The notes under the pieces: generated by a model
What the model was told of the DNA's origin: nothing
The model's input: the letters and a program-made list of their open reading frames with translations, nothing else
Databases searched by the model: none
Shown here: in pieces, positions 1 through 16,647 of the stretch
How the letters are laid out: each line of letters opens with the position of its first letter
Numbering within the stretch: position 1 is the stretch's first letter
Made by a program: the position numbers and the translations under genes
IMG/VR virus record: IMGVR_UViG_2734482579_000003
Source: a virus
Taxonomy: Duplodnaviria > Heunggongvirae > Uroviricota > Caudoviricetes
DNA: 16,647 nucleotides
Direction: 5' to 3' (one strand)

Positions 1-66
1 CTGCGTGGACTTCAGGTTGTCCTTCGCTTCGCGCGGGGTATGCCCCTTACTGCTGCCTTTACCCAT
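1..66 (-). CDS. J: Tail tip / host specificity protein J, N-terminal 22 codons (gene continues beyond window start)
   Basis: Reverse complement of 1..66 translates to MGKGSSKGHTPREAKDNLKSTQ, which I recognise as the lambda gpJ N-terminus. Start codon ATG at 66..64, about 60 nt downstream of the I stop as in lambda. Confidence 0.8.
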   Translation of the reverse strand, partial: MGKGSSKGHTPREAKDNLKSTQ

Positions 67-126
67 TCGTCATGCTCCATAAACGATAAAACCGCCCGGA
101 GGCGATTTCACATAAAACATTTTGCA

Positions 127-798
127 TCAGCGACCAATCACCACAACCTGACCACCGTCCCCTTCGTCTGCCGTGCTGATCTCCTGAGATACCACACGTG
201 ACCCCACGCGCATTTCACCATACAGAACAGGCATAACATTGCCCTGGGCAACCATGTTATCCAGTGAGGAGAAATAGGTGTTCTGCTTACCGTTATCCGT
301 TGTCTGTGTGCGGGGAGTTCTGGCTTTCGGTGCCAGCATCTGAGCCACACCGCCGAGCACCATACTGGCACCGAGAGAAAACAGAATGCCGGTCATACCA
401 CCGGCACCAATGGCAGCCCCCCATGCTGCAAGGGTGGCTCCGGCGGTAAAGAATGATCCGGCAATGGCGGCTGCTCCCAGGACAATCTGGAATACACCAC
501 CTGACTTGGCCCCGGCGACTCTGGGAACAATATGAATCACAGCGCCGTCAGGCAGAGCCTCATGTAACTGTGCCGTTAATCCGGACGTGCTAACATCCTG
601 CCCGGCAATACGCACCTGATACCAGCCGTCGCTCAGCTTCTGACGAAACGCAGGGAGCTGTGTGGCCATCGCCCGGATGGCTTCGGCACCCGTTTTCACA
701 CGAAGGTCGATGCGGCGGCCAAATCGTTGCAAATCCCCGTAAAGGCAGATGCGTGCCATGCCCGGTGACGCCAGAGGGAGTGTGTGCGTCGCTGCCAT
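127..798 (-). CDS. I: Tail tip assembly protein I (223 aa)
   Basis: ORF 127..798, 223 aa, same length as lambda gpI. Hydrophobic Gly/Ala-rich C-terminal half. Overlaps the 3' end of K by 103 nt in another frame, as in lambda. Confidence 0.9.
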   Translation of the reverse strand: MAATHTLPLASPGMARICLYGDLQRFGRRIDLRVKTGAEAIRAMATQLPAFRQKLSDGWYQVRIAGQDVSTSGLTAQLHEALPDGAVIHIVPRVAGAKSGGVFQIVLGAAAIAGSFFTAGATLAAWGAAIGAGGMTGILFSLGASMVLGGVAQMLAPKARTPRTQTTDNGKQNTYFSSLDNMVAQGNVMPVLYGEMRVGSRVVSQEISTADEGDGGQVVVIGR

Positions 799-1358
799 TT
801 GTCGGTATACCTCTCTCGTTTGCTCAGTTGTTCAGGAATATGGTGCAGCAGCTCGCCGTCACCACAGTAAATGGCGGCATGATTCGGCACCGATGAACCA
901 AAACAGCACAGCAGCACATCGCCCGGCTGCGCCGCTGACAACGGCACCTGATACAGCCCTGTGGCCTCCAGATTATCCAGATAGAGATTCTGACCGTGAC
1001 GCCACCAGTCATCCTCACGATGAAAATCCGGCATCTCAATCCCCGCCAGATGGTAAGCATCCCGGAACAGCGTGTAACAGTCCGTCACCCCGTGCTCAAA
1101 GCGCCGCCCGGTAAGATGTGGCACACAGCGGAACTTGTGAATCGCCCCCCGGCAGACCAGCCACCACGGCAAATCACTCTGCACCTGCAGCCGCCGGTCG
1201 GCCTCACTCAGCCAGGGCAGACCACCGTCCGGCTCACCGGAGATATTCACGCAGGGGAAATATCTTTCCCCCTCCGGCGTTCTTACCACGAAGCCGCACG
1301 ACTCCGCTGGAGCACATCGCCGGGCGTGCGCCAGAATCGCTGATTCTGTCTCTGTCAT
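696..1358 (-). CDS. K: Tail tip assembly protein K (MPN/JAB-like N-terminus, NlpC/P60-like C-terminus); 220-aa ORF, true start uncertain
   Basis: ORF 696..1358 sits between L and I. The motif GVTDCYTLFRDAY is consistent with an NlpC/P60 catalytic Cys region, and the N-terminus (ILAHARRCAPAESCGFVV) looks like an MPN-fold start. I remember lambda gpK as 199 aa, but the codon at the corresponding position here is GGC, not a start, so I kept the ORF start 5 nt after the L stop. Confidence 0.8.
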   Translation of the reverse strand: MTETESAILAHARRCAPAESCGFVVRTPEGERYFPCVNISGEPDGGLPWLSEADRRLQVQSDLPWWLVCRGAIHKFRCVPHLTGRRFEHGVTDCYTLFRDAYHLAGIEMPDFHREDDWWRHGQNLYLDNLEATGLYQVPLSAAQPGDVLLCCFGSSVPNHAAIYCGDGELLHHIPEQLSKRERYTDKWQRRTHSLWRHRAWHASAFTGICNDLAAASTFV

Positions 1359-1363
1359 GGGAT

Positions 1364-2062
1364 TTACTGCGAAAGTTTGTTAATGGAAAGGAAGCCGCCA
1401 AAGTTGCCGACGTTATTGCGAAACTTACAGCCACTCAGGCATTTGCTGCATTTATCCTTCGTGATGTCGGACGTTGGCTGGTCATATTCATCCGCGACCG
1501 CCGGACCGTGATAACCGCACTCATCGCCGCGATAGGTCCAGGTGCAGGTGTTGGCCAGCATGATACGTCCCGGAAAAACAGCGCCATCTGTTTCCGTCGG
1601 CGTGGACAGTACAAAAGAGGCACTCACCGCGCTCAGTTCGCTGCACTGCTCAATGCGCCAGCGGCTGATCACCTCCTGCTCCGGATCGGCGTCACTGTTT
1701 CCGTTGACGAAGTTCACCGCATCCAGAAAACGGGCGTAAACCTTACGCCGGACCACCGTTCCGCCGACCAGACTCTGTAGATCTTCCGCCATCCCGGTGA
1801 CCATACCGTACAGGTTAGAAACCATCAGCGTGGGGCGCGTACTGGTGCCTTTGCCATTCAGTTCAAAACCACTCCCCTGAATGGGATACGGCTGATACTG
1901 TCGCCCCTGCCAGGTGACCGGCTCACCTTTTTCGTTCTGCTCATTACAGAAAAAATAACGTTCTCCACCGACCTCTGTCAGATCGATTTCCCAGAGCACC
2001 ACGCTGGCCGACTGCTCCGCACGGGTGCATTCATTCAGTGTTTCCTGCCGGATATCCTGCAT
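1364..2062 (-). CDS. L: Minor tail / tail tip protein L (232 aa)
   Basis: ORF 1364..2062, 232 aa, same length and position as lambda gpL. Cys-rich C-terminus (CSKCLSGCKF) consistent with the gpL metal-binding region. Confidence 0.9.
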   Translation of the reverse strand: MQDIRQETLNECTRAEQSASVVLWEIDLTEVGGERYFFCNEQNEKGEPVTWQGRQYQPYPIQGSGFELNGKGTSTRPTLMVSNLYGMVTGMAEDLQSLVGGTVVRRKVYARFLDAVNFVNGNSDADPEQEVISRWRIEQCSELSAVSASFVLSTPTETDGAVFPGRIMLANTCTWTYRGDECGYHGPAVADEYDQPTSDITKDKCSKCLSGCKFRNNVGNFGGFLSINKLSQ

Positions 2063-2391
2063 CAGTTCACCACCTGTTCAAACTCTGCGCTGAACTCAAC
2101 ACGCAGCATACTGACCCGCGACGACCATTTTGCGCAGGTCACCTTTATCTGCCGCCACTCATAAGGCGGCGTCCACAGAAAGGCTTTCCAGCCCCCGTGC
2201 TCTTCCAGAAACGACTCCAGTACCATGGCCTCCTCACGGGGGACAGAAAGCGTCACGCTGTACGTTTTCAGGTTGGCATTCAGCCCGGCAGGCGCTCGCT
2301 GGGAATAGCCATCACCAAAGCGCACCTTTCTTACAGAAGGGGCCGAAGCCACATCCATACCGGGTTTCACTTTCCAGCGGAAGGTTTTCAT
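2062..2391 (-). CDS. M: Minor tail protein M (109 aa)
   Basis: ORF 2062..2391, 109 aa, same length as lambda gpM. Its stop overlaps the L start by 1 nt and its start overlaps the H stop, typical translational coupling. Confidence 0.9.
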   Translation of the reverse strand: MKTFRWKVKPGMDVASAPSVRKVRFGDGYSQRAPAGLNANLKTYSVTLSVPREEAMVLESFLEEHGGWKAFLWTPPYEWRQIKVTCAKWSSRVSMLRVEFSAEFEQVVN

Positions 2392-4949
2392 CGTCCACCT
2401 CCGGAGAACAGGCCACCATCACGCATCTGTGTCTGAATTTCATCACGGGCACCCTTGCGGGCCATGTCATACACGGCCTTCATCATCTGTGGACCTGGCA
2501 GACCATTCGTACCGTCGTTCTGAATCACCACGTGATTGTTCTGATTAAAATTAATGCCTTCAGCCCGCCGCATCTGCGCCGGACTTCCGGCACCGCCCAC
2601 ATAACCACCTTCCGCATAGCCGCGCATCAGCCGGTAGAGATTCCCCACGCCAATCCGGCTGGTTGCCTCCTTCGTGAAGACAAATTCACCACGGTGAACA
2701 ATCCCCGCTGGCTCATATTTGCCGCCGGTTCCCGTAAATCCCCCGGTTGCAAAATGGAATTTCACCGCAGCGGCCTGAATGGCTGTACCACCTGACGCGG
2801 ATGCGCCGCCACCAACAGCCCCGCCAATGGCGCTGCCGATACTCCCGACAATCCCCACCATTGCCTGCTTAAGCAGAATTTCTGTCATCATGGACAGCAC
2901 GGAGCGGGTGAAGCTGCGCCAGTTCTGTTCACTGCCGGTCAGCATCGCCGCCATATTCTGTGCAATACCATCAAAGGTCTGCGTGGCTGCACTTTTAACC
3001 TGTGACATACTGTCCGTGGCGCTCTCTTCCCACTCACTCCAGCCGGACTTCAGGCCTGCCATCCAGCTCCCGCGAAGCTGGTCTTCAGCCGCCCAGGTCT
3101 TTTTCTGCTCTGACATGACGTTATTCAGCGCCAGAGGATTATCGCCATACTGTTCCTTCAGGCGCTGTTCCGTGGCTTCCCGCGCTGCCTGCCGGTCAGT
3201 CAGCCCCCGGTTTTTCGCATCAATGGCTGCCCGTTTTGCCCGTTGCTGCTGTGCGAATTTATCCGCCTGCTGCGCCAGCGCATTCAGGTGCTCCTGATAC
3301 GTAACCTTGTCACCAAGTGCAGCCAGCTGGCGTTTGTACTCCAGCGTCTCGTCTTTATGCGCCAGCAGGGATTTCTCCTGTGCGGACAGCTGGCGACGTT
3401 GTGCCGCCTCCTCCAGTACCGCGAACTGACTTTCTGCCTTCCACAAATCCCGGCGCTGCTGGCTGATTTTCTCATTCGCTCCGGCATGCTTCTCCAGCGT
3501 CCGGAGTTCTGCCTGAAGCGTCAGCAGGGCCGCATGAGCACTGTCTTCCTGACGATCGCCCGCATACACCTTCACGCCGGACTGTTTCGGCTTTTTCAGC
3601 GTCGCTTCATAATCCTTTTTCGCCGCCGCCATCAGCGTGTTGTAATCTGCCTGCAGGATTTTTCCGTCTTTCAGTGCCTTGTTCAGTTCTTCCTGACGGG
3701 CGGTATATTTCTCCAGCGGCGTCTGCAGCCGTTCGTAAGCCTTCTGCGCCTCTTCGGTATATTTCAGCCGTGACGCTTCGGTATCGCTCTGCTGCTGCGC
3801 ATTTTTGTCCTGTTGACGCTGTTGATCTACCCTCTTTTGGGCTGCATCCCGCTCCAGGCGTTTTTTTTCACGATCATCCCAGTAACGCGCCCGTGCTTCA
3901 TCGTTAACGAAATAATCATCCTTGCGCAGATTCCAGATGTCGTCTGCTTTCTTAAACGCAGCCTCTGCCTTAATCAGCATCTCCTGCGCGGTATCAGGAC
4001 GACCAATATCCAGCACCGCATCCCACATGGATTTGAATGCACGTGCAGTCCTGTCTGCCCAGGTCTCCAGCGTGCCCATGTTCTCTTTCAGGCGGCGGGT
4101 CTGGTCATCAAACCCTTTCGTTGCGGCCTCGTTCGCCGCCTGCAATGCCCCGGCTTCATCGCCGGAACGCTGCAACTGAGCAACATACGCAATCTGCTCC
4201 GCCGTCACGTTATGGAACTGGCGTGCCATCGCCGTCAGCCCCGACGTCGGGTCTGTGGTCAGCTTCCCGAAGGCTTCAGCGACCTTGTCCACCTCCACGC
4301 CGGATGCATAGGAGAAACGCGCCACACTCTGGCTGATGGACGCAATCTGAGCCTCACCGCTTACCCCCGCCTTAACCAGTGCGCTGAGTGACTCGCTGGT
4401 CTGGTTAAACGTCAGCCCTGCCGCCTGCCCGGCTCTGGACAGGACCAGCATACGATCTGCCGTCAGTCCCGCCTGATTACCGGAAAGGACCAGCGTTTTG
4501 TTGAAATCGGACAGGGTTGAGTTGCCCTGATACCAGGCATACGCCAGCGCACCGGTCGCCACCGCCAGCGAGGTGGCCCCCACCATCGGCAGGGTGATCG
4601 CGCCGGCAAGCCCCCTGAACATGGGGATCATCCCGCCGAAGGAGTCCTTAACCTGACCACCCTGTTGCAGCAGGATCAGCCAGGGATTCTGCCCCCCTGC
4701 AAGCTGCGTGGCCACGTCGGTGAACTGTGCAGGCAGCATACGCATGGCGGCTTTATACTGCCCGACGGAAATCCCCGCTTTCTGTGCAGCCAGCGCCTGT
4801 CGGCTCAGCGACTGTTCAACGACTGCCGCTGTTTTTTTCGCATCACTTTCCGTACCGGAAAAATGACGCCTGACTCTGGCCATCTGCTCGTCAAATCTGG
4901 CCGCATCCAGACTCAAATCAACGACCAGATCGCCTACCGGTTCAGCCAT
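2388..4949 (-). CDS. H: Tail tape measure protein H (853 aa)
   Basis: ORF 2388..4949, 853 aa, same length as lambda gpH. N-terminus MAEPVGDLVVDLSLDAARFDEQ, long coiled-coil-like central region rich in E/K/Q/A, Gly-rich C-terminus. Overlaps the T-frame stop by 8 nt as in lambda. Confidence 0.95.
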   Translation of the reverse strand: MAEPVGDLVVDLSLDAARFDEQMARVRRHFSGTESDAKKTAAVVEQSLSRQALAAQKAGISVGQYKAAMRMLPAQFTDVATQLAGGQNPWLILLQQGGQVKDSFGGMIPMFRGLAGAITLPMVGATSLAVATGALAYAWYQGNSTLSDFNKTLVLSGNQAGLTADRMLVLSRAGQAAGLTFNQTSESLSALVKAGVSGEAQIASISQSVARFSYASGVEVDKVAEAFGKLTTDPTSGLTAMARQFHNVTAEQIAYVAQLQRSGDEAGALQAANEAATKGFDDQTRRLKENMGTLETWADRTARAFKSMWDAVLDIGRPDTAQEMLIKAEAAFKKADDIWNLRKDDYFVNDEARARYWDDREKKRLERDAAQKRVDQQRQQDKNAQQQSDTEASRLKYTEEAQKAYERLQTPLEKYTARQEELNKALKDGKILQADYNTLMAAAKKDYEATLKKPKQSGVKVYAGDRQEDSAHAALLTLQAELRTLEKHAGANEKISQQRRDLWKAESQFAVLEEAAQRRQLSAQEKSLLAHKDETLEYKRQLAALGDKVTYQEHLNALAQQADKFAQQQRAKRAAIDAKNRGLTDRQAAREATEQRLKEQYGDNPLALNNVMSEQKKTWAAEDQLRGSWMAGLKSGWSEWEESATDSMSQVKSAATQTFDGIAQNMAAMLTGSEQNWRSFTRSVLSMMTEILLKQAMVGIVGSIGSAIGGAVGGGASASGGTAIQAAAVKFHFATGGFTGTGGKYEPAGIVHRGEFVFTKEATSRIGVGNLYRLMRGYAEGGYVGGAGSPAQMRRAEGINFNQNNHVVIQNDGTNGLPGPQMMKAVYDMARKGARDEIQTQMRDGGLFSGGGR

Positions 4950-5780
4950 ACCGGACTCCTCCTGCGATCCCTTCTGATACTGTCATCAGCATTACGTCAT
5001 CCTCCGTCATGTCCGCCACATCCGGGGAAGCGGGGATAACTTCATTCCCGTCCGGGCCAAAGCGGACACCTCCGGCAAGCCCTGCCGCTTTCTGCATCAG
5101 CACATCATCTTCAGGCTCTTCGTCAGCCTCGCGCCGGTTCAGCAGACTGAAATCCAGCGGATGCATCTCCGGATCGCTGAAAAACAGGCTGAGCACGGTG
5201 TACGTCAGCCCGGAAAAGTGCATATCCAGCAGAACATCATGAAAATAATGGGTACTGTAAAAGCGGTGCCAGTCGGCATACTCCGTGGATGACATCCCGG
5301 CAAGCATGGCGCGCCAGTCGGGTCGCCCCATCTCACGCGCCAGTTTCAGGGCAAAACTCAGCTCACCGTCGAACACTTTCCCGCAGAAACAGGCTCTGCA
5401 GGCCCGGCGTCCTCTGCCTGTTCAGGAGCATCATTCACCACAAACTCATACATACCGGACAGCCGGTACACCACGTTTTCAGCATGAGAAATTGCCTCTG
5501 TGGGCCAGGTGGTAAGCACTTCCTGCTCAATCTGTTTAACGGCTTCATTCATGGACGGCATCTGCGTCTTCTTCGGATGGTTATGCCACAGGGACATCGC
5601 AACCACAAAAGCGCCGGTTCTGATGGCGTCTTCCACAGTAAACTTCCGGTTGCTGTCTGACTCCGCCTGTTCTGCCTGCCGTTTCATCAGGTCGAGATGC
5701 TCAATACGCTGCAGGGCTGACAGTTCAGAAAGCGTGACGGTCACACCGTTATGTTCAAATGATTCGGTTTTCAGGAACAT
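4942..5780 (-). CDS. G-T: Tail assembly chaperone G-T fusion made by programmed -1 ribosomal frameshift (G frame 5780..5379, then T frame to 4942)
   Basis: The T-frame ORF 4942..5376 (144 codons, as lambda T) is in the -1 frame relative to G and begins at the slippery site. T has no independent AUG; the tracked ORF starts on GTG inside the heptamer. Confidence 0.85.
5358..5780 (-). CDS. G: Tail assembly chaperone G (140 aa)
   Basis: ORF 5358..5780, 140 aa, same length as lambda gpG. Contains the slippery heptamer near its 3' end (Gly134-Lys135). Confidence 0.9.
   Translation of the reverse strand: MFLKTESFEHNGVTVTLSELSALQRIEHLDLMKRQAEQAESDSNRKFTVEDAIRTGAFVVAMSLWHNHPKKTQMPSMNEAVKQIEQEVLTTWPTEAISHAENVVYRLSGMYEFVVNDAPEQAEDAGPAEPVSAGKCSTVS
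5376..5382 (-). promoter_or_regulatory. -1 programmed ribosomal frameshift slippery heptamer G GGA AAG (G to G-T)
   Basis: Plus strand 5376..5382 is CTTTCCC, so the minus strand reads G GGA AAG with GGA and AAG as G codons 134-135. This is the classic X XXY YYZ motif and the sequence known for lambda G-T. Confidence 0.85.
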
Positions 5781-5795
5781 CGCTGACTCTCCGGA

Positions 5796-6536
5796 TTAAC
5801 TGGCGGTGACGTTGATTTCTGCAACCGCAGCAAACTCACCATTACCAGATACGACCGGAATGTTGACCTTGCCTGCAGCAACACCTTTCACGGTGATGGT
5901 CATACCACTGACCGACACGGTGGCTTTTGTTTTATCCGCAGACACCGCACGGAAGCTCTTGTCGGTTGCGCCATCCGGCTGGAATGCCACGGTCAGCGTG
6001 GTGCTCTGCCCTTTCACTACGGAAGCACTGGCGGGTGTCACCGTCATGCCGGTCGTCGCCGTCACCGTGCTGCGATCTTCTGCCATCGACGGACGTCCCA
6101 CATTGGTGACCTTCACCGTGCGGGTAATCACCTCCTTCGCCGTCACCGCCTTACCGATACTGCTGACCCAGCCACGGAACACATCGACCGTGCCGTTCGG
6201 GAAGCGGATTTTATAGGCACGGGTATCACCTTCATTAAACCACGCCAGCAGCGCCTGCTGCCCCTGCTCTCCGGGCATCCACGCCAGCGTGAAGCTGGTA
6301 TCTCCGGCAGATTTCTGCCCCTGCCCGGTCGCAGTCCAGTCTGCATCTTCATCATCGAGATAGCTGTCGTCATAGGACTCAGCGGTCAGTTCGCCGGGCG
6401 TCAGGTCTTTAACTTTTGCCAGACGCGACCAGTCAACGTCTGAAAGCGGGTTCGCATAAGGGTCACCGCTCCCCTTATAAACCCACAGGGTGGTCCCGGC
6501 ACCTTTCACCGGCATTGTAGGATTTGGTACAGGCAT
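5796..6536 (-). CDS. V: Major tail tube protein V (246 aa) with C-terminal Ig-like domain
   Basis: The tracked ORF (5796..6566) extends upstream, but the lambda gpV start [12 protein letters not shown] maps to the ATG at 6536..6534, giving 246 aa as in lambda. C-terminal about 90 aa ([21 protein letters not shown]...) resembles a bacterial Ig-like domain. Confidence 0.9.
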
Positions 6537-6543
6537 AGCGTCC

Positions 6544-6939
6544 TCACATTTCATAGATAATGACATAAGTCAGATCGGCTGAACTCCACAGGCCCGCATC
6601 ATCGTCGCGCCGGTAGTCATAGCCGCTGGCCACCATACTGGTGATCAAATCTGACAGTGCCGGGATATCGCTCATCACAGGATAAATCCGGGACTCCATC
6701 CACGAATCCAGCTCTGAATCCGGCACCTGAGCAGGCAGGAAAACTTCAATATGCAGCTCCGCCTGCCAGGTATCGCTGTCCAGCTCTTCGCCCGTGTATT
6801 CAGCGCCGGTGAGATAAACGGCAATTGCCGGAAAATCTTCCTCATCAAAAACAGCGGGGCGACCATCAAAAAGCGTCGCCCCGGTGTCATGCTTCTCCAG
6901 TGCATCCAGTACGGCTGCACGGAGTTCAGTATGTTTCAT
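6544..6939 (-). CDS. U: Tail terminator protein U (131 aa)
   Basis: ORF 6544..6939, 131 aa, same length and position as lambda gpU. N-terminus [17 protein letters not shown]. Confidence 0.9.
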
Positions 6940-7514
6940 CGCTTTATTACCATTCTCAGTTGATGCTGCAGCGCATAGCCCAGCTCTTTCGGAAGACGTT
7001 CACGCCGTATCCGTTCAATATTCTGTTTAAACGCCGTGGTCAGCGGCACCGCCATCGGGATTTTCACCACATCAATGGGGTAACGGTTTTTCCCGGCCAC
7101 ACGCTGCATAACATGCCACCGGCCGTTTTTCAGTTGCTGAATAAACGCGCCGGGAATACGACGGTTACCCACCACAAGCACGCTGCCGCCACCTTTCAGG
7201 GATGAACGCTGCCCCTTTTTATGACGCCTGCGGCGGGACAGGACAACCCGCGCATTACCCAGCTTGATTACGGGCAAATCCCCCCGGTTAACTTTGATTC
7301 TGGCCTGCGGATTTTTGACCGTGGCCCTTTTCAGCCTGGCCCTTTCCTTTACCAGTTTCCGGCGTACCTTTGTCTCACGGGCAACCTGTGACGCAGACTG
7401 CGATATCGCGGATGAAGCAACGCGGTTAATGGCCATTGCGGCGGCACCGGGCACCGCCGTTTTGCTGATACGGCTGAGGTTTTCAACGGCCTGCTCAAGA
7501 CCTTTTATGGCCAT
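6936..7514 (-). CDS. Z: Tail completion protein Z (192 aa)
   Basis: ORF 6936..7514, 192 aa, same length as lambda gpZ. Very basic protein; 4-nt overlap with the U start. Confidence 0.9.
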   Translation of the reverse strand: MAIKGLEQAVENLSRISKTAVPGAAAMAINRVASSAISQSASQVARETKVRRKLVKERARLKRATVKNPQARIKVNRGDLPVIKLGNARVVLSRRRRHKKGQRSSLKGGGSVLVVGNRRIPGAFIQQLKNGRWHVMQRVAGKNRYPIDVVKIPMAVPLTTAFKQNIERIRRERLPKELGYALQHQLRMVIKR

Positions 7515-7525
7515 ACATCCCCCTT

Positions 7526-7879
7526 TCAGCGGCGACGGTTAACGGCAGGCGGTACGCCCCGTCCAAGCCAGAGATGACAACTTCCGCCATCATCCGGCGA
7601 AACCCGATCTACCCAGAAATTTTCCTCACCGATGGTCAGCGTGTCTCCACGCCGCAGCTGCCGCACCTCATCAGTCCGGACAAACAGGGACGGGCTGGAG
7701 CCTTCAACGCGCACGCCCTGTCCGGCATAGCTGATATTTTCAGGGTCATCAAAAACACCACGTATCACCGCACCTGACTGCTCACCGGATGTCATGGTGG
7801 CTGACGTTCCCATGTACCCGCGTATCGTTTCATCGGCGCGGGCAATGGCAGCATCGAACAGGTTATCGAAATCAGCCAC
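7526..7879 (-). CDS. FII: Head-tail connector / head completion protein FII (117 aa)
   Basis: ORF 7526..7879, 117 aa, same length as lambda gpFII. N-terminus MADFDNLFDAAIARADETIRG. Minus-strand sequence AAGGGGGA lies just upstream of the Z start. Confidence 0.9.
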   Translation of the reverse strand: MADFDNLFDAAIARADETIRGYMGTSATMTSGEQSGAVIRGVFDDPENISYAGQGVRVEGSSPSLFVRTDEVRQLRRGDTLTIGEENFWVDRVSPDDGGSCHLWLGRGVPPAVNRRR

Positions 7880-7890
7880 AGCGCCTCCCG

Positions 7891-8289
7891 TTATTGCATT
7901 CTGGCCAGGCCGCGCTCTGTCATTTCGGCTGCCACACCGGCAGAGACACGAAACGCCGTTCCCGGCAGCACAAATGCCACAGGTTTATCCCGCGTGGCGT
8001 GAAGTGCATCAGTATGCAGCGTCACCAGTGCCACGACCGTGACCAGTTCAGCCGTATCCTGAATCACGGTATCCGGCTGCGCTGATACCACCTCATTTTC
8101 ATGCCCGGTCAGCACATTTTCCCGGCTGAGAGGGGTGTCCTGACCGGCAGTTTCATCCGTGTCATCAAGCTCTTCTTCCAGCTCTGCCACACGAAGCGCC
8201 AGTTCTTCTTTCGTTCCCGTCAAACTGACATCGCGGTTCAATTGCTCACCCAGCTCCTGAAGACGGGCAATCAGTTCATCTTTCGTCAT
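7891..8289 (-). CDS. FI: DNA packaging accessory protein FI (132 aa)
   Basis: Tracked ORF is 145 aa, but the lambda gpFI start MTKDELIARL maps to the ATG at 8289..8287, giving 132 aa. GGAGGAG Shine-Dalgarno lies 5 nt upstream of that ATG on the minus strand. Confidence 0.85.
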   Translation of the reverse strand: MTKDELIARLQELGEQLNRDVSLTGTKEELALRVAELEEELDDTDETAGQDTPLSRENVLTGHENEVVSAQPDTVIQDTAELVTVVALVTLHTDALHATRDKPVAFVLPGTAFRVSAGVAAEMTERGLARMQ

Positions 8290-8310
8290 GAACTCCTCCA
8301 CAGAGAGAAA

Positions 8311-8328
8311 ATGGCCCCGAAGGGCCAT
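8311..8328 (-). terminator. Stable stem-loop (7-bp GC-rich stem, UUCG tetraloop) followed by a U-rich stretch, between E stop and FI start
   Basis: Minus-strand RNA reads UAA-UC-AUGGCCC-UUCG-GGGCCAU-UUUCUCUCUG-UGGAGGAG-UUC-AUG. Plus strand 8311..8328 is atggccccgaagggccat, a perfect inverted repeat. Confidence 0.4.
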
Positions 8329-8330
8329 GA

Positions 8331-9356
8331 TTACGCCAGTTGAACGGACACGAACTCATCAGGATCAGCCAGCAGCATCAGCGGTGCTGACTGAATCATG
8401 GTGAACTCACGCGCCGGATCGCCGGTGGTCACCCAGTTTTTCGGGTAACGGGCAGAAGCGTTAATGCCTTCGCGCTGTGCGTCCGCATCCTGAATGCAGC
8501 CATAGGTGCGCAGACCGCGAGCCTGAGTGTTCCCCAGCACCATCGTGTTGTCCGGCAGGAAGTTCTTTTTGACGCCGTTTTCCACGTACTGTCCGGAATA
8601 CACGACGATGGCCACATCGCCATACATTCCCTTATAGGACACCGCTTTGCCCAGGTCTTTTACCGCTGTCTCCAGCTCGGAATGAGAGCCGCGACGGGTA
8701 TCCAGCTTCTCCTTGACGGCTTTGAAGGAACGGAACAGCGCCCAGCCTTTCGGGTCAAACACGATGATATTCACCACACCGCTGGCGTTCAGCGCGTAGG
8801 CTTCGATATCGTCGGTCGGGTCATACGTGGACTTGTCACGCTTGCTCCACTCCGTGACGCCGGACTGTGTGATGTTGTTCGCCGCACTGCGGCCCATATC
8901 CACCTCAACCGGATCGAAGGCTTCACCGGTCATGGTGTATTTGCCCTTGAGCACGGCAGAAACTGCCTGCATCTCTTCGACCTGAGCAATGGCCAGCTCT
9001 TCGTCACGCATGTTCTGCATGATGATGCGACGGCGGCGGTAAGCCGGGTCCGCCAGATTCTGCGGATCTTCATCCGGCAGGCGACGCAGGGTCATCTGCG
9101 GATTCACCTCATGCTTGGGTTTGACATATCCCGGCGTAAATTCAGAGGTGGAGCCGCCACGGGAACGGATAACCTCACCGGAAACAATCGGCGAAACGTA
9201 CAGCGCCATGTTTACCAGTCCCGGAATTTGTGAGAGATAGACTTTCTCCGTAGTGAAGGGATAGCTCTCACGGAAAAAGAGACGCAGAAACAGCGGATCA
9301 AACTTAAATTTCTGCTCATTTGCCGCCAGCAGCTGGGCGGTTGTGTACATCGACAT
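8331..9356 (-). CDS. E: Major capsid protein E (341 aa)
   Basis: Lambda gpE N-terminus MSMYTTAQLLAANEQKFKFDPLFLRLFF maps to the ATG at 9356..9354, giving 341 aa as in lambda. The tracked ORF starts 9 codons upstream. Confidence 0.95.
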   Translation of the reverse strand: MSMYTTAQLLAANEQKFKFDPLFLRLFFRESYPFTTEKVYLSQIPGLVNMALYVSPIVSGEVIRSRGGSTSEFTPGYVKPKHEVNPQMTLRRLPDEDPQNLADPAYRRRRIIMQNMRDEELAIAQVEEMQAVSAVLKGKYTMTGEAFDPVEVDMGRSAANNITQSGVTEWSKRDKSTYDPTDDIEAYALNASGVVNIIVFDPKGWALFRSFKAVKEKLDTRRGSHSELETAVKDLGKAVSYKGMYGDVAIVVYSGQYVENGVKKNFLPDNTMVLGNTQARGLRTYGCIQDADAQREGINASARYPKNWVTTGDPAREFTMIQSAPLMLLADPDEFVSVQLA

Positions 9357-9371
9357 AAAAAAATCCCGTAA

Positions 9372-9396
9372 AAAAAGCCACACAGGCGGCCTTTAG
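9372..9396 (-). terminator. Terminator-like hairpin plus U-tract in the D-E intergenic region
   Basis: Minus-strand RNA AAAGGCCGCCUGUGUGGCUUUUUU can form a stem of about 9 bp (two G-U pairs) with loop CUGU, followed by ACGGGAUUUUUUU and then the E AUG. Confidence 0.3.
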
Positions 9397-9411
9397 TGAT
9401 GAAGGGTAAAG

Positions 9412-9744
9412 TTAAACGATGCTGATTGCCGTTCCGGCAAACACGGTCCGTTTTTTCGTCTCGTCGCTGGCAGCCTCCGGCCAGAGCACATCCTCATAAC
9501 GGAACGTGCCGGACTTGTAGAACGTCAGTGTGGTGCTGGTCTGGTCAGCAGCAACCGCAAGAATGCCAACGGCAGCACCGTCGGTGGTGCCATCCCACGC
9601 AACCAGCTTACGGGTGGAGGTGTCCAGCATCAGCGGGGTCATTGCAGGCGCTTTCGCACTCAATCCGCCGGGCGCGGTTGCGGTATGAGCCGGGTCACTA
9701 TTGCCCAGCGGCTGGTAATGGGTAAAGGTTTCTTTGCTCGTCAT
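9412..9744 (-). CDS. D: Capsid decoration protein D (110 aa)
   Basis: Lambda gpD N-terminus [12 protein letters not shown] maps to the ATG at 9744..9742, giving 110 aa as in lambda. The tracked ORF starts 2 codons upstream. Confidence 0.95.
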
Positions 9745-9753
9745 AAACATCCC

Positions 9754-10359
9754 TTACACTGGTGTGTTCAGCAAATCGTTAACGGCATCAGATGCCGGGT
9801 TACCTGCAGCCAGCGGTGCCGGTGCCCCCTGCATCAGACGATCCAGCGCAGTGTCACTGCGCGTCTGTGCACTCTGTGGTGCTGCGGCCAGAATACGGCG
9901 GGCCGTTTCCACGGTCATACCGGGGGTTTCGGCCAGCACGCGTGCCTGTTCTTCGCGTCCGTGAGCCTCCTCACAGTTGAGGATCCCCATAATGCGACTG
10001 TTTTCTGCCGCAACCGCTGCGGTGATCTGCGCGTTCACGTCCGGCTGCGCCGCGCTGGCGTTCTCGCCCTCCGTCGCTTGCACCACGCCAGTAACGTCAG
10101 CCTGCGAAGCAGTGGCTGAAACAGTTGTTGATTGAGTCTCTTTGGTCATTCGCCCTCCTGAGAGACGGGATTTACGTGCATCCAGTGCATCACGCATGAC
10201 GGTGATCGCATCGGTACTGTTAACAAGTTCATCAGCCAGTCCGGCATCAATGGCCTCCTGACCGCTGTACACTGCAGCCTCGGTATCCAGCACAGCCTGC
10301 ACGGACAGGCCGGTATATGCCGACACCTTCTGTGCAAACATCCGGCGGGTTGCATCCAT
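9754..10359 (-). CDS. Nu3: Capsid scaffolding protein Nu3 (201 aa), in-frame internal start within C
   Basis: In-frame ATG at 10359..10357 begins MDATRRMFAQKVSAYTG and shares the C stop. Length of 201 aa matches lambda Nu3, the known nested arrangement. Confidence 0.8.
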   Translation of the reverse strand: MDATRRMFAQKVSAYTGLSVQAVLDTEAAVYSGQEAIDAGLADELVNSTDAITVMRDALDARKSRLSGGRMTKETQSTTVSATASQADVTGVVQATEGENASAAQPDVNAQITAAVAAENSRIMGILNCEEAHGREEQARVLAETPGMTVETARRILAAAPQSAQTRSDTALDRLMQGAPAPLAAGNPASDAVNDLLNTPV

Positions 10360-11053
10360 CCGGGACTGCAATGTTTCCCGGACATCATCCGGTAGATGGC
10401 TGTAGGGGTTGCCATCCACCTTATGGCTGCCGCTGTAAATCAGCGTGATTTCCACGCCCTGTTTCTCCAGTGCAGCGCCGTAATTACTGTGAGCCATCAT
10501 GACGCCGATGGAGCCTGTCCGGGCGGTCTGCGTGACCAGACGCCGGGAGGCGGCACTGGCAAGCAGCTGACCTGCGCTGCAGTTCATGTCATTGGCCAGC
10601 GCCCATACCGGCTTTATGTCACGCACACGGGCGATGATGTCAGCGCAGTCAAATGCTCCCGCCACCATTCCGCCCGGTGTGTCCATATCGAGCAGAATGC
10701 CGTCCACCATCGGGTCGCTGGCAGCCTGTTGCAGACGGGCGATAATGCCGTTGTAACCGGTCATCCCCGAGTACGGCTGCAGCGCCCGCGTCCGGCTGAC
10801 CAGCGTGCCGGACACCGGCAGCACGGCGATGCCGTTCATTACCTGATAACTGCGGGCCTGTCGTGGTCCGTCATCATCACCGGATAACGCCAGCGCCGCG
10901 GGTGCCTCTCCGGCAGTCAGGCTGTCGCCGGATACTGCATCCGTCAGGCAGCTGATCCCAAGCTGGCCTGCAAGCGCACAAAAGAAAACCCGCGCATAGG
11001 CGGGTTCAAGCATCAGCGGCTCATTAAAAGCCATGCTGGCAATATGCGGGAGA

Positions 11054-11073
<20 letters not shown>
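9754..11073 (-). CDS. C: Prohead protease / minor capsid protein C (439 aa, GTG start)
   Basis: Lambda gpC N-terminus (M)TAELRNLPHIASMAFNEPLMLEPAYARVFF begins at codon V46 of the tracked ORF. The codon at 11073..11071 is GTG. This gives 439 aa and a 20-nt overlap with the B 3' end, both as in lambda. ClpP/SppA-like serine protease features. Confidence 0.9.
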
Positions 11074-14754
<3,681 letters not shown>

Positions 14755-14780
<26 letters not shown>

Positions 14781-15300
14781 TCAGCAACCCCGGTATCAGT
14801 TCATCCAGCGCGGCTGCTTTGTTCATGGCTTTGATGATATCCCGTTTCAGGAAATCAACATGTCGGTTTTCCAGTTCCGGAAAACGCCGCTGCACCGACA
14901 GGGGGATCCCGTCGAGAATACTGGCAATTTCACCTGCGATCCGCGACAGCACGAAAGTACAGAATGCGGTTTCCACCACTTCAGCGGAGTCTCTGGCATT
15001 TTTCAGCTCCTGTGCGTCGGCCTGCGCACGCGTAAGTCGATGGCGTTCGTACTCAATAGTCCCTGGCTGGAGATCTGTCTCGCTGGCCTGCCGCAGTTCT
15101 TCAACTTCCCGGCGCAGCTTTTCGTTCTCAATTTCAGCATCCCTTTCGGCATACCATCTTATAACGGCGGCAGAGTCATAAAGCACCTCATTACCCTTGC
15201 CACCGCCTCGCAGAACGGGCATTCCCTGTTCCTGCCAGTTCTGAATGGTACGGATACTCGCACCGAAAATGTCAGCCAGCTGCTTTTTGTTGACTTCCAT
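14755..15300 (-). CDS. Nu1: Terminase small subunit Nu1 (181 aa)
   Basis: ORF 14755..15300, 181 aa, same length as lambda gpNu1. N-terminus MEVNKKQLADIFGASIRTIQNWQEQGMPVLRGGGKGNEVLYDS (winged-HTH DNA-binding domain). Sits directly downstream of cosB. Confidence 0.95.
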
Positions 15301-15321
15301 TGTTCATTCCACGGACAAAAA

Positions 15322-15441
15322 CAGAGAAAGGAAACGACAGAGGCCAAAAAGCCCGTTTTCAGCACCTGTCGTTTCCTTTCTTTTCAGGGGGTGTTTTAAA
15401 TAAAAACATTAGGTTACGGCGAAGAAGAACGGAAACGCCTT
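15322..15441 (-). other. cosB: three Nu1-binding R elements (R1 about 15322..15340, R2 about 15365..15385, R3 about 15422..15441) with an IHF-type AT-rich site (about 15390..15412) between R3 and R2
   Basis: Repeated GGAAACG / CGTTTCC cores (cagagaaaggaaacgacag, cctgtcgtttcctttcttttc, gaagaagaacggaaacgcc) in the same arrangement I remember for lambda cosB. The AT-rich gtgttttaaataaaaacatta lies between R3 and R2. Confidence 0.75.
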
Positions 15442-15477
15442 AAACCGGAAAATTGTCATAAATAGCGAAAACCCGCG

Positions 15478-15489
15478 CGCCTTCCGCCC
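15478..15489 (-). other. cosN cohesive-end region, variant sequence relative to canonical lambda
   Basis: Flanks match lambda (GCGAAAACCCGCG on one side, CGTAACCTG on the other). The 12-nt core reads CGCCTTCCGCCC on the plus strand, i.e. GGGCGGAAGGCG in lambda orientation, versus canonical GGGCGGCGACCT as I recall it. Confidence 0.6.
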
Positions 15490-15505
15490 CGTAACCTGTC
15501 GGATC

Positions 15506-15519
15506 GCCGGAAAGGACCC
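15506..15519 (-). other. cosQ-like element (packaging termination signal)
   Basis: Sequence ccggaaaggaccc about 17-30 bp from cosN on the right-end side corresponds to the GGGTCCTTTCCGG segment of lambda cosQ. Boundaries are approximate and from memory. Confidence 0.45.
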
Positions 15520-15525
15520 GCAAAA

Positions 15526-15540
15526 TGATAATAATTATCA
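15526..15540. promoter_or_regulatory. Perfect 15-bp palindrome TGATAATAATTATCA matching the Fur-box 7-1-7 consensus
   Basis: Read directly from sequence: TGATAAT-A-ATTATCA, perfect dyad symmetry, immediately distal to cosQ. Confidence 0.4.
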
Positions 15541-15688
15541 TCTACATGTCACAACGTGCATCTACGCCATCAAACCACGTCAAATAATCAATTATGACGC
15601 AGGTATCGTATTAATTGATCTGCATCAACTTAACGTAAAAACAACTTCAGACAATACAAATCAGCGACACTGAATACAGGGCAACCTC

Positions 15689-15922
15689 ATGTCAACGAAG
15701 AACAGAACCCGCAGAACAACAACCCGCAACATCCGCTTTCCTAACCAAATGATTGAACAAATTAACATCGCTCTTGTTCAAAAAGGGTCCGGGAATTTCT
15801 CAGCCTGGGTCATTGAAGCCTGCCGCCGGAGACTGTGCTCAGAAAAAAGAGTTTCGCCTGAAGCAAACAAAGAAAAGAGTGACATTACTGAATTGCTCAG
15901 AAAACAGGTTAGACCAGATTGA
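15689..15922 (+). CDS. Small ribbon-helix-helix (Arc/MetJ/CopG-like) putative DNA-binding protein, 77 aa
   Basis: ORF 15689..15922. After a basic Arg/Thr-rich N-terminal tail, the segment NIRFPNQMIEQINIALVQKGSGNFSAWVIEACRRRL fits the RHH beta-strand / helix / Gly turn / helix pattern. No strong Shine-Dalgarno; start uncertain. Confidence 0.5.
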   Translation: MSTKNRTRRTTTRNIRFPNQMIEQINIALVQKGSGNFSAWVIEACRRRLCSEKRVSPEANKEKSDITELLRKQVRPD

Positions 15923-15979
15923 AGCAATTTAGATAATCGTGCAGACTACGCCCCCTCATATCACATGGAAGGTACTACA

Positions 15980-16390
15980 ATGGCTCAGGTTGCCATTTTT
16001 AAACAAATATTCGATAAAGTGCGAAATAATTTAAACTATCACTGGTTTTATTCTGAACTAAAACGTCACAATGTCTCACATTACATTTACTATTTAGCCA
16101 CAGAGAATATTCATCTTGTTCTTGAAAACGATAATACGGTTTTAATAAAAGGACAGGGTAAGGTTGTAAATGTAAGATTTTCAAAAAATAAATGCCTTAT
16201 AGAAGCCACCTTAAAAGGATTCAAATCAGGAGAGTTATCATTTTACGAATACAGGAAAAATCTTGCTACAGCAGGGGTTTTCAGATGGATTACAAATATC
16301 CACGAAAACAAAAGGTATTACTATACCTTTGATAATTCATTACTCTTTACTGAGAACATACAGAACACTACACAAATATTTCCGCACTAA
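15980..16390 (+). CDS. YbcV/DUF1398-like hypothetical protein (136 aa), AT-rich moron-type gene
   Basis: Tracked ORF 15965..16390; the ATG at 15980 ([11 protein letters not shown]...) is preceded by GGAAGG at good spacing and gives 136 aa. The gene is visibly AT-rich compared with the GC-rich structural genes. Resemblance to E. coli DLP12 YbcV is from memory, not alignment. Confidence 0.6.
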
Positions 16391-16398
16391 ATCATAAC

Positions 16399-16427
16399 GT
16401 CCGGTTTCTTCCGTGCCAGAACCGGAC
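16399..16427. terminator. GC-rich hairpin (8-bp perfect stem gtccggtt/aaccggac, extendable to 10 bp with one bulge) just after the YbcV-like stop
   Basis: Inverted repeat read from sequence. No clear U-tract on the plus strand; a moderately U-rich stretch follows on the minus strand. Confidence 0.3.
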
Positions 16428-16558
16428 TCGCTGGCATGATGAAATATGTGTACCCGGTAACCCCGGTGTGCATCGTTTTTGATTATTCCCGCACACTCGC
16501 GCAGAAGGAGTTCCCCGTCGGGCTACGGTCTCTGTTAATACGGGAATACGGCGACGAT

Positions 16559-16647
16559 TGGATTTGCCCCTATATTTCCAGACATCTGTTATCACTTAAC
16601 CCATTACAAGCCCGCTGCCGCAGATATTCCCGTGGCGAGCGATAACC
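16559..16647 (-). mobile_element. IS2: Terminal ~90 bp of an IS2 insertion sequence (right inverted-repeat end), continuing beyond the window
   Basis: From 16559 the sequence tggatttgcccctatatttccagacatctgttatcacttaacccattacaagcccgctgccgcagatattcccgtggcgagcgataacc is the reverse complement of the IS2 right end as I recall it (...GGTTATCGCTCGCCACGGGAATATCTGCGGCAGCGGGCTTGTAATGGGTTAAGTGATAACAGATGTCTGGAAATATAGGGGCAAATCCA). Confidence 0.8.
16570..16647 (-). CDS. insD: IS2 transposase OrfB (InsD) C-terminal fragment, 5'-truncated by window edge
   Basis: Minus-strand translation of 16647..16573 gives ...GYRSPREYLRQRACNGLSDNRCLEI followed by stop TAG at 16572..16570, matching the IS2 OrfB C-terminus from memory. 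Confidence 0.7.
   Translation of the reverse strand, partial: GYRSPREYLRQRACNGLSDNRCLEI

Follow-up and report, generated by a model that had tools for sequence, protein, structure and literature searches.

The window, i.e., the whole stretch of 16,647 nucleotides that was analysed, carries on its minus strand a collinear lambda-type morphogenesis region running from gene I via H, V, E, B and A to Nu1. Over positions 1-16559 it shares about 96.5% DNA identity with lambda (in three aligned pieces) and 97-98% with isolated lambda-like phages. The order Nu1-A-W-B-C-D-E-FI-FII-Z-U-V-G-T-H-M-L-K-I is collinear with cos upstream of Nu1, as in a Lambdavirus-type late region. On identical loci of Shigella sonnei the gene lengths are those of lambda, and the exceptions found in the window are gene K, which is 27 codons short, and a variant cosN. 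Beyond cos follow a YlcI/YnfO-family gene and a DUF1398 gene, the latter oriented opposite to the phage late genes so that its 3' end faces the right inverted repeat (IRR) of an IS2 element (Table 1). IS2 starts 168 bp past the DUF1398 stop codon, in the stretch that separates the cos-proximal from the lysis genes, and the window ends inside it. Directly after the DUF1398 stop a perfect 8-bp stem lies at 16399-16427 (GTCCGGTT...AACCGGAC, 13-nt loop), which is largely conserved in lambda; as it lacks a T-run, it is not a canonical intrinsic terminator.

Table 1. Features at the cos-proximal end of the window and at its IS2 terminus (positions are those of the window).
Feature	Position	Strand	Remarks
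Nu1, terminase small subunit	14755..15300	-	Nu1/NohD in relatives and lambda; Pfam PF07471 on identical locus
cosN position	15478..15489		window CGCCTTCCGCCC, lambda AGGTCGCCGCCC; 5/12 bases differ (5 of 6 adjacent), flanks conserved
YlcI/YnfO-family (DUF3950) gene	15689..15922	+	Pfam PF13132, E = 2e-20; NCBIfam NF041551
DUF1398 (YbcV-like) gene	15965..16390	+	Pfam PF07166, E = 3.3e-43; 'DUF1398 domain-containing protein' in relatives
Left part of the ~590-bp unannotated spacer receiving IS2	16391..16558		spacer separates the DUF1398 gene from the 85-aa and KilA-N genes
Chimeric 69-aa ORF, most likely not a gene	16436..16645	+	41 codons of phage spacer and 28 codons across the IS2 IRR; junction marker
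ACGAT, left copy of the target-site duplication	16554..16558		right copy beyond the window, directly after the left inverted repeat (IRL)
IS2, terminal 89 nt, entered from the right end	16559..16647	- (transposase genes)	89/89 to K-12 IS2A
IS2 IRR, 41 bp	16559-16599		TGGATTTGCCCCTATATTTCCAGACATCTGTTATCACTTAA; identical to K-12 IS2A IRR; IRR length from PMC3299598
orfB (insD), last 25 codons and stop	16570-16647	-	

When reverse-complemented, the right end of IS2A from Escherichia coli K-12 MG1655 agrees with the terminal 89 bases of the window at all 89 positions, the reference being the MG1655 sequence taken with its mobile-element annotation. Thousands of E. coli records also contain these bases, with 100% identity (E = 3e-38), at sites annotated as 'IS3-like element IS2 family transposase'. 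The boundary between phage and IS2 is sharp to the base: positions 15300-16558 have matches of ~98-99% identity in more than 2,600 E. coli records, and all full-length matches listed for this interval stop at 16558, where the phage sequence ...ggcgacgat is directly followed by tggatttgcccctatatttccagacatctgttatcacttaaccc.... The identity of the terminus as IS2 is real and far beyond chance, which bears out the preliminary description, in which an IS2 terminus had been placed at 16559.

Of the insertion, the window contains only the IRR end and the left ACGAT; the opposite end of the element, the right ACGAT and the genes downstream were read from near-identical sequences of further S. sonnei isolates. 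Five IMG/VR contigs carry the 40-nt junction exactly, and in four of them the part that overlaps the window is 100% identical to it. Two complete chromosomes have the 69-aa junction ORF, and over 10,212 nt their identity with the window is 99.99% (CP104423.1) and 99.93% (CP032523.1). Four sequences extend through the element, namely the IMG/VR contigs L003 (34.9 kb) and L004 and the complete chromosomes L012 and L013, and their flanks are 99.9-100% identical to the window. In all four of them the complete IS2 measures 1331 bp and ends in ...GGGGGCCAGTCTA, with inverted repeat arms detected, and the 5-bp direct repeat ACGAT stands on both sides of it. The occupied site accordingly reads ...GGCGACGAT, IS2 and ACGATACAGCGC... 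in these four sequences, while the empty site in the prophage of E. coli strain 582 (L001) reads ...GGCGACGATACAGCGC..., i.e., ...GGCGACGAT directly continued by ACAGCGC, with ACGAT present once. The features by which IS2 is recognised are thus distributed over two sources, with the IRR found in the window itself and the length, the target duplication and the two reading frames found in the near-identical sibling sequences.

The IS2 copies at this locus differ from IS2A at 4-5 bases, and in three of the four (L003, L004 and L013) OrfA and OrfB are identical to InsC and InsD of K-12 and the A6G frameshift site (AAAAAAG) at IS position 409 is kept. Pfam detects HTH_Tnp_1 in OrfA and HTH_21, rve and rve_3 in OrfB. 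In the fourth copy (L012; CP104423.1, 10124-11454) the transposase genes are disrupted: a +1/-1 indel pair puts orfA out of frame between IS positions ~145 and 409, one A of the A6G run is lost, and OrfB carries a stop codon (Q210*). These lesions may reflect real decay or a sequencing error of the long-read homopolymer type. An IRR of 41 bp and an IRL of 42 bp, together with the structure of the ends and a preference for bent targets, have been described for IS2 (PMC3299598). As judged from the sibling loci, the element shares with K-12 IS2A its 1331 bp, OrfA/OrfB, the A6G site, the 41/42-bp imperfect terminal repeats and the 5-bp duplication, and differs from it in nothing of substance, being a Shigella-borne copy at a new position. 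It is complete and apparently active, as far as a capacity to transpose is suggested by the intactness of its sequence and by the presence of IS2 in many copies in Shigella (PMC7373316, PMC3299598).

Behind IS2 the phage goes on in order with the 85-aa gene, KilA-N/ORF11CD3, Rz, lysozyme, a P21-type holin, IS1, a porin gene, Q, YlcG, RusA, YbcO, NinE and YbcN, for which Pfam detects KilA-N, Phage_lysis (Rz), Phage_lysozyme, the P21 holin and a Q homologue (PF06530), and an intact lysis cassette lies ~1.4 kb beyond the IRL end of IS2. The interpretation in which we have high confidence is therefore a simple insertion of IS2 into a spacer of a lambda-like S. sonnei prophage, with the phage unchanged beyond it. 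IS2 (IS3 family, 1331 bp) has inserted 168 bp past the DUF1398 gene and thereby duplicated ACGAT, as one of the many IS2 copies that stem from the Shigella IS expansion. In the preliminary description the right arm of the prophage had been considered interrupted or rearranged at IS2; a rearrangement does not agree with the ACGAT repeats on both sides and the collinear phage DNA in all four sequences, and a simple insertion with intact downstream phage genes is the outcome that the description itself had named as speaking against its reading. It had further proposed to look for the other IS2 end, the 5-bp duplication and the DNA beyond; the window stops short of them, and it is in the four near-identical sequences that the ACGAT repeats, with the lysis genes beyond, were found. 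Read from these sequences, the packaging and lysis modules are not separated by a rearrangement.

Two other readings of the terminus start from the fact that so little of the element is seen. According to the first, this IS2 copy would be a rearrangement breakpoint in the isolate from which the window derives, with an inversion or deletion, caused by recombination between IS2 copies, separating the right arm from the packaging module; the far side lies outside the window, further IS copies in the same prophage could recombine, and a study on Shigella genomes (PMC8072062) reports high rates of IS-associated rearrangement. We regard this as highly unlikely, as the four of four sequences that run through IS2 show ACGAT repeats and collinear phage and are 99.9-100% identical to the window, and as the collapse of a repeat fully explains the end of the contig. 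As a caveat, the source isolate may differ from its siblings, given that Shigella genomes rearrange often at IS copies according to the same study (PMC8072062). According to the second reading, to which we give a close to negligible probability, the terminal 89 nt would not belong to a full element but be an isolated IS2 end or a chimera made in assembly, as might be thought from the shortness of the piece in the window; here the full 1331-bp IS2 that follows the same junction in L003, L004, L012 and L013, and the presence of the junction ORF on 341 contigs, stand against it.

The simple insertion is also in line with the way in which the window itself ends. The last base of the window is also the last of contig L007, and the draft contig CWYH01000055.1, which is 100% identical over window positions 1-11358, has a computed end equivalent to window position 16647. 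Moreover, many database versions of the 69-aa junction ORF are marked 'partial'. The end of the window and of its source contig is a short-read assembly break in a multi-copy repeat and not a biological boundary; only 89 nt of IS2 are visible because the short-read assembly broke inside the multi-copy element.

The preliminary description had put the insertion at the place expected for bor and the lysis cassette. The position holds in so far as IS2 does lie in the interval between the cos-proximal and the lysis genes, but bor is absent from this interval in the lineage: none of L001, L003, L012 and L013 has it between Rz and the DUF1398 gene, where the 85-aa and KilA-N genes are found instead. 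Since the KilA-N module occupies the bor position of lambda in this lineage, bor was not displaced by IS2. The gene bor itself is present in lambda, and iss is present in E. coli A7. The right end of lambda (Rz - bor - ybcV-like - ybcW - cos), like DLP12-type prophages, was compared with this lineage. Shared with lambda are the morphogenesis genes, Nu1 and the cos flanks (~96.5% identical) as well as YlcI- and DUF1398-type genes by cos. In lambda, however, the bor promoter and gene follow directly after the shared DNA, while this lineage has the 85-aa gene and KilA-N/ORF11CD3, its lysis genes are of the P21/DLP12 type (EssD, RrrD), and a porin gene stands between Q and the holin. In an alignment of L001, L009 (lambda) and L003, the homology boundary between lambda (bor) and this lineage (KilA-N module) falls ~8 nt right of ACGAT (equivalent to window 16554-16566). 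That a module boundary lies near the IS2 target may be a coincidence, or it may mark a locally bent or recombinogenic spot.

The spacer that received IS2 contains no gene annotated by RefSeq in L001, and an Rfam search gave no match at the spacer and target. Its only sizeable ORF, of 54 aa, is cut by IS2. This ORF has no Pfam or NCBIfam match and is unannotated by RefSeq in L001 and L002; lambda keeps the spacer DNA, but with frame-breaking indels in the ORF. The gene calls of some pipelines include it, as 'hypothetical' or, erroneously, as 'arginyl-tRNA synthetase'. Without a family match or a RefSeq annotation, and frame-broken in lambda, the 54-aa ORF is unlikely to be a gene, and as far as annotation and protein families indicate, IS2 interrupts no recognised gene.

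By joining the spacer to the IRR, the insertion creates the chimeric 69-aa ORF that serves as a marker of the junction. Its exact sequence occurs on 341 contigs, and the organisms named in its records as listed are all Shigella (11 'Shigella sonnei', 1 'MULTISPECIES [Shigella]'). By the records of this junction ORF, the host of the prophage is identified as S. sonnei; the E. coli or Shigella-type host that had been proposed from the window is thereby upheld and narrowed, the junction ORF being recorded almost only from S. sonnei. The uninterrupted 54-aa allele is recorded also from one S. sonnei entry, which may represent a strain without the insertion or a second copy of the prophage. Among 5,426 complete E. 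coli genomes searched, the exact junction was absent. Two full-coverage E. coli matches to the junction were set aside as different insertions, 255 and 459 bp away.

These two are independent insertions of IS2 or IS2-like elements in lambdoid prophages, in the same orientation, at 4335-5660 of L011 (E. coli S115) and 7718-8900 of L002 (E. coli LR-71-1). They lie 255 bp and 459 bp, respectively, past the homologous position, again in the interval from the lysis genes to cos, which suggests that this interval tolerates or attracts insertions of the IS2 type.

The orientation of the element bears on what it could do to its surroundings. Its transposase genes are co-directional with the late operon (Q -> S-R-Rz -> cos-Nu1-A onward), so that outward transcription from IRR would be antisense to the DUF1398 and YlcI genes and outward transcription from IRL would be antisense to the 85-aa and KilA-N genes. 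The preliminary description had suggested that IS2 at the edge of a moron locus can drive the expression of neighbouring genes, i.e., that it acts as a mobile promoter for moron-like genes. The abutted right and left ends of the IS2 minicircle do form a strong promoter, Pjunc (PMC3299598), and at the locus one promoter-like match, CTGACA-18 nt-TAGACT, spans the junction between phage and IRL. This match reads into IS2, though, and its spacer has 18 nt and not the 17 needed by Pjunc, and the four promoter-like sites found in total compare with a shuffle expectation of 3.8, which is chance level. At the IRR end no outward promoter-like site was found, and the DUF1398 and YlcI genes are located upstream of IS2 and converge on it, so that RNA leaving IRR would be antisense to them, as RNA leaving IRL would be to the 85-aa and KilA-N genes. 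Because of the antisense orientation at both ends, IS2 cannot be a sense promoter for its immediate neighbours, and the suggestion is to be given up as extremely unlikely.

A more direct effect could be expected on the late operon itself. Upon induction, RNA polymerase modified by Q would have to cross IS2, in the sense direction of the transposase genes, in order to reach cos, Nu1, which is the first late gene downstream of IS2 along late transcription, and the head and tail genes. IS2 might therefore stop late transcription ahead of Nu1, A and the genes for head and tail, in which case lysis would occur without virions and the prophage would be disabled. The location of IS2 on the transcribed strand, between Rz/KilA-N and cos/Nu1, is compatible with such an effect, and strong polarity in one orientation is known from classical IS2 insertions. 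Lambda late transcription, however, is made resistant to terminators by Q, a Q homologue (PF06530) is present in this prophage, and in classical experiments lambda antitermination relieved polarity caused by IS elements. Inside IS2 no terminator-like site was predicted. Taken together, a polar block is unlikely, and antitermination of the Q type should, by analogy to lambda, permit read-through of IS2. The simple insertion into the spacer is thus probably close to neutral for the host. A highly speculative and improbable corollary of read-through is that induction of the prophage floods IS2 with transposase mRNA and couples bursts of IS2 transposition to SOS and prophage induction, and that the extra 1.3 kb together with the other IS could exceed the lambda packaging limit; if this were true, bursts coupled to induction might contribute to the Shigella IS expansion.

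The preliminary description had also read the IS2 terminus, together with the variant cosN, as a sign of a possibly defective prophage. IS2 gives no evidence for this; a defect is possible for reasons other than IS2, namely IS1/IS21 at gene P, IS1 between the holin and porin genes, a deletion in gene K and the rare cosN. An IS1 fragment of 230 bp, itself interrupted by the left end of IS21 (istA), lies 30 bp before the stop of replication gene P (L013 19669-20210); phage homology stops there, and the early region beyond gene P may have been deleted. A complete IS1 of 768 bp with an 8-bp duplication (CCAATTTT) is located between the holin and porin genes (L013 14191-14958), ~2.7 kb right of IS2, and also stands in the path of late transcription from Q. 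In the window itself, the tail-tip gene K (ORF 696-1358, minus strand) shows an 81-bp in-frame deletion at 1227/1228 relative to S. sonnei chromosomes and lambda. K is thereby reduced from 247 to 220 aa, and the 27 residues lost, EAYFRMSPEDWLQAEMQGEIVALVHSH, include the H-x-H of the MPN/JAMM motif, such that Pfam no longer detects a JAB domain in the K protein of the window. The edges of the deletion share the 4-bp microhomology CCGG, and the deletion allele is found on only four contigs in a large collection. Tail assembly in this sublineage is probably defective as a result of the deletion.

The cosN variant is context and separate from the IS2 event. In phage orientation the site reads GGGCGGAAGGCG compared with GGGCGGCGACCT in lambda, and the variant is common to E. 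coli strain 582 and the S. sonnei contigs. With a 95-nt probe, the complete E. coli genomes yielded two records with at least 99% identity, 66 at 95-99% and 3,259 at 90-95%, so that the allele is rare, and among the records of the phage collection no full-length match was found. Whether particles can still be produced by this prophage depends on the other lesions and not on IS2.

The insertion is ordinary biology and already known in the sense that it is present and annotated in public S. sonnei genomes; for the accessions CP104423.1 and CP032523.1, no literature was found on either. As a clean insertion into a gene-free spacer, with the lysis genes behind it intact, the finding is real but ordinary. 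Classical IS2 insertions in the genomes of the phages lambda and P1 were selected as mutants with a phenotype. Like these, the present IS2 resides in the genome of a temperate phage and inside a transcription unit; unlike them, it is a natural copy on hundreds of S. sonnei contigs and without a known phenotype.

IS2 is among the five IS that are expanded in all Shigella (IS1, IS2, IS4, IS600 and IS911; Hawkey et al. 2020, PMC7373316). The prophage fits this picture with S. sonnei as its host and with IS1, IS2 and IS21, all of which are listed in that work for S. sonnei 53G. While the same paper stresses gene loss caused by IS (PMC7373316), this IS2 sits in a spacer, where it turns no annotated gene into a pseudogene. 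The finding fixes the source of the window as S. sonnei and explains why the contig stops where it does, and it matters little otherwise. With IS2, the complete IS1, the IS1 fragment and the start of IS21, four IS-derived pieces lie within ~10 kb of this prophage, an instance of the Shigella IS expansion reaching prophages.
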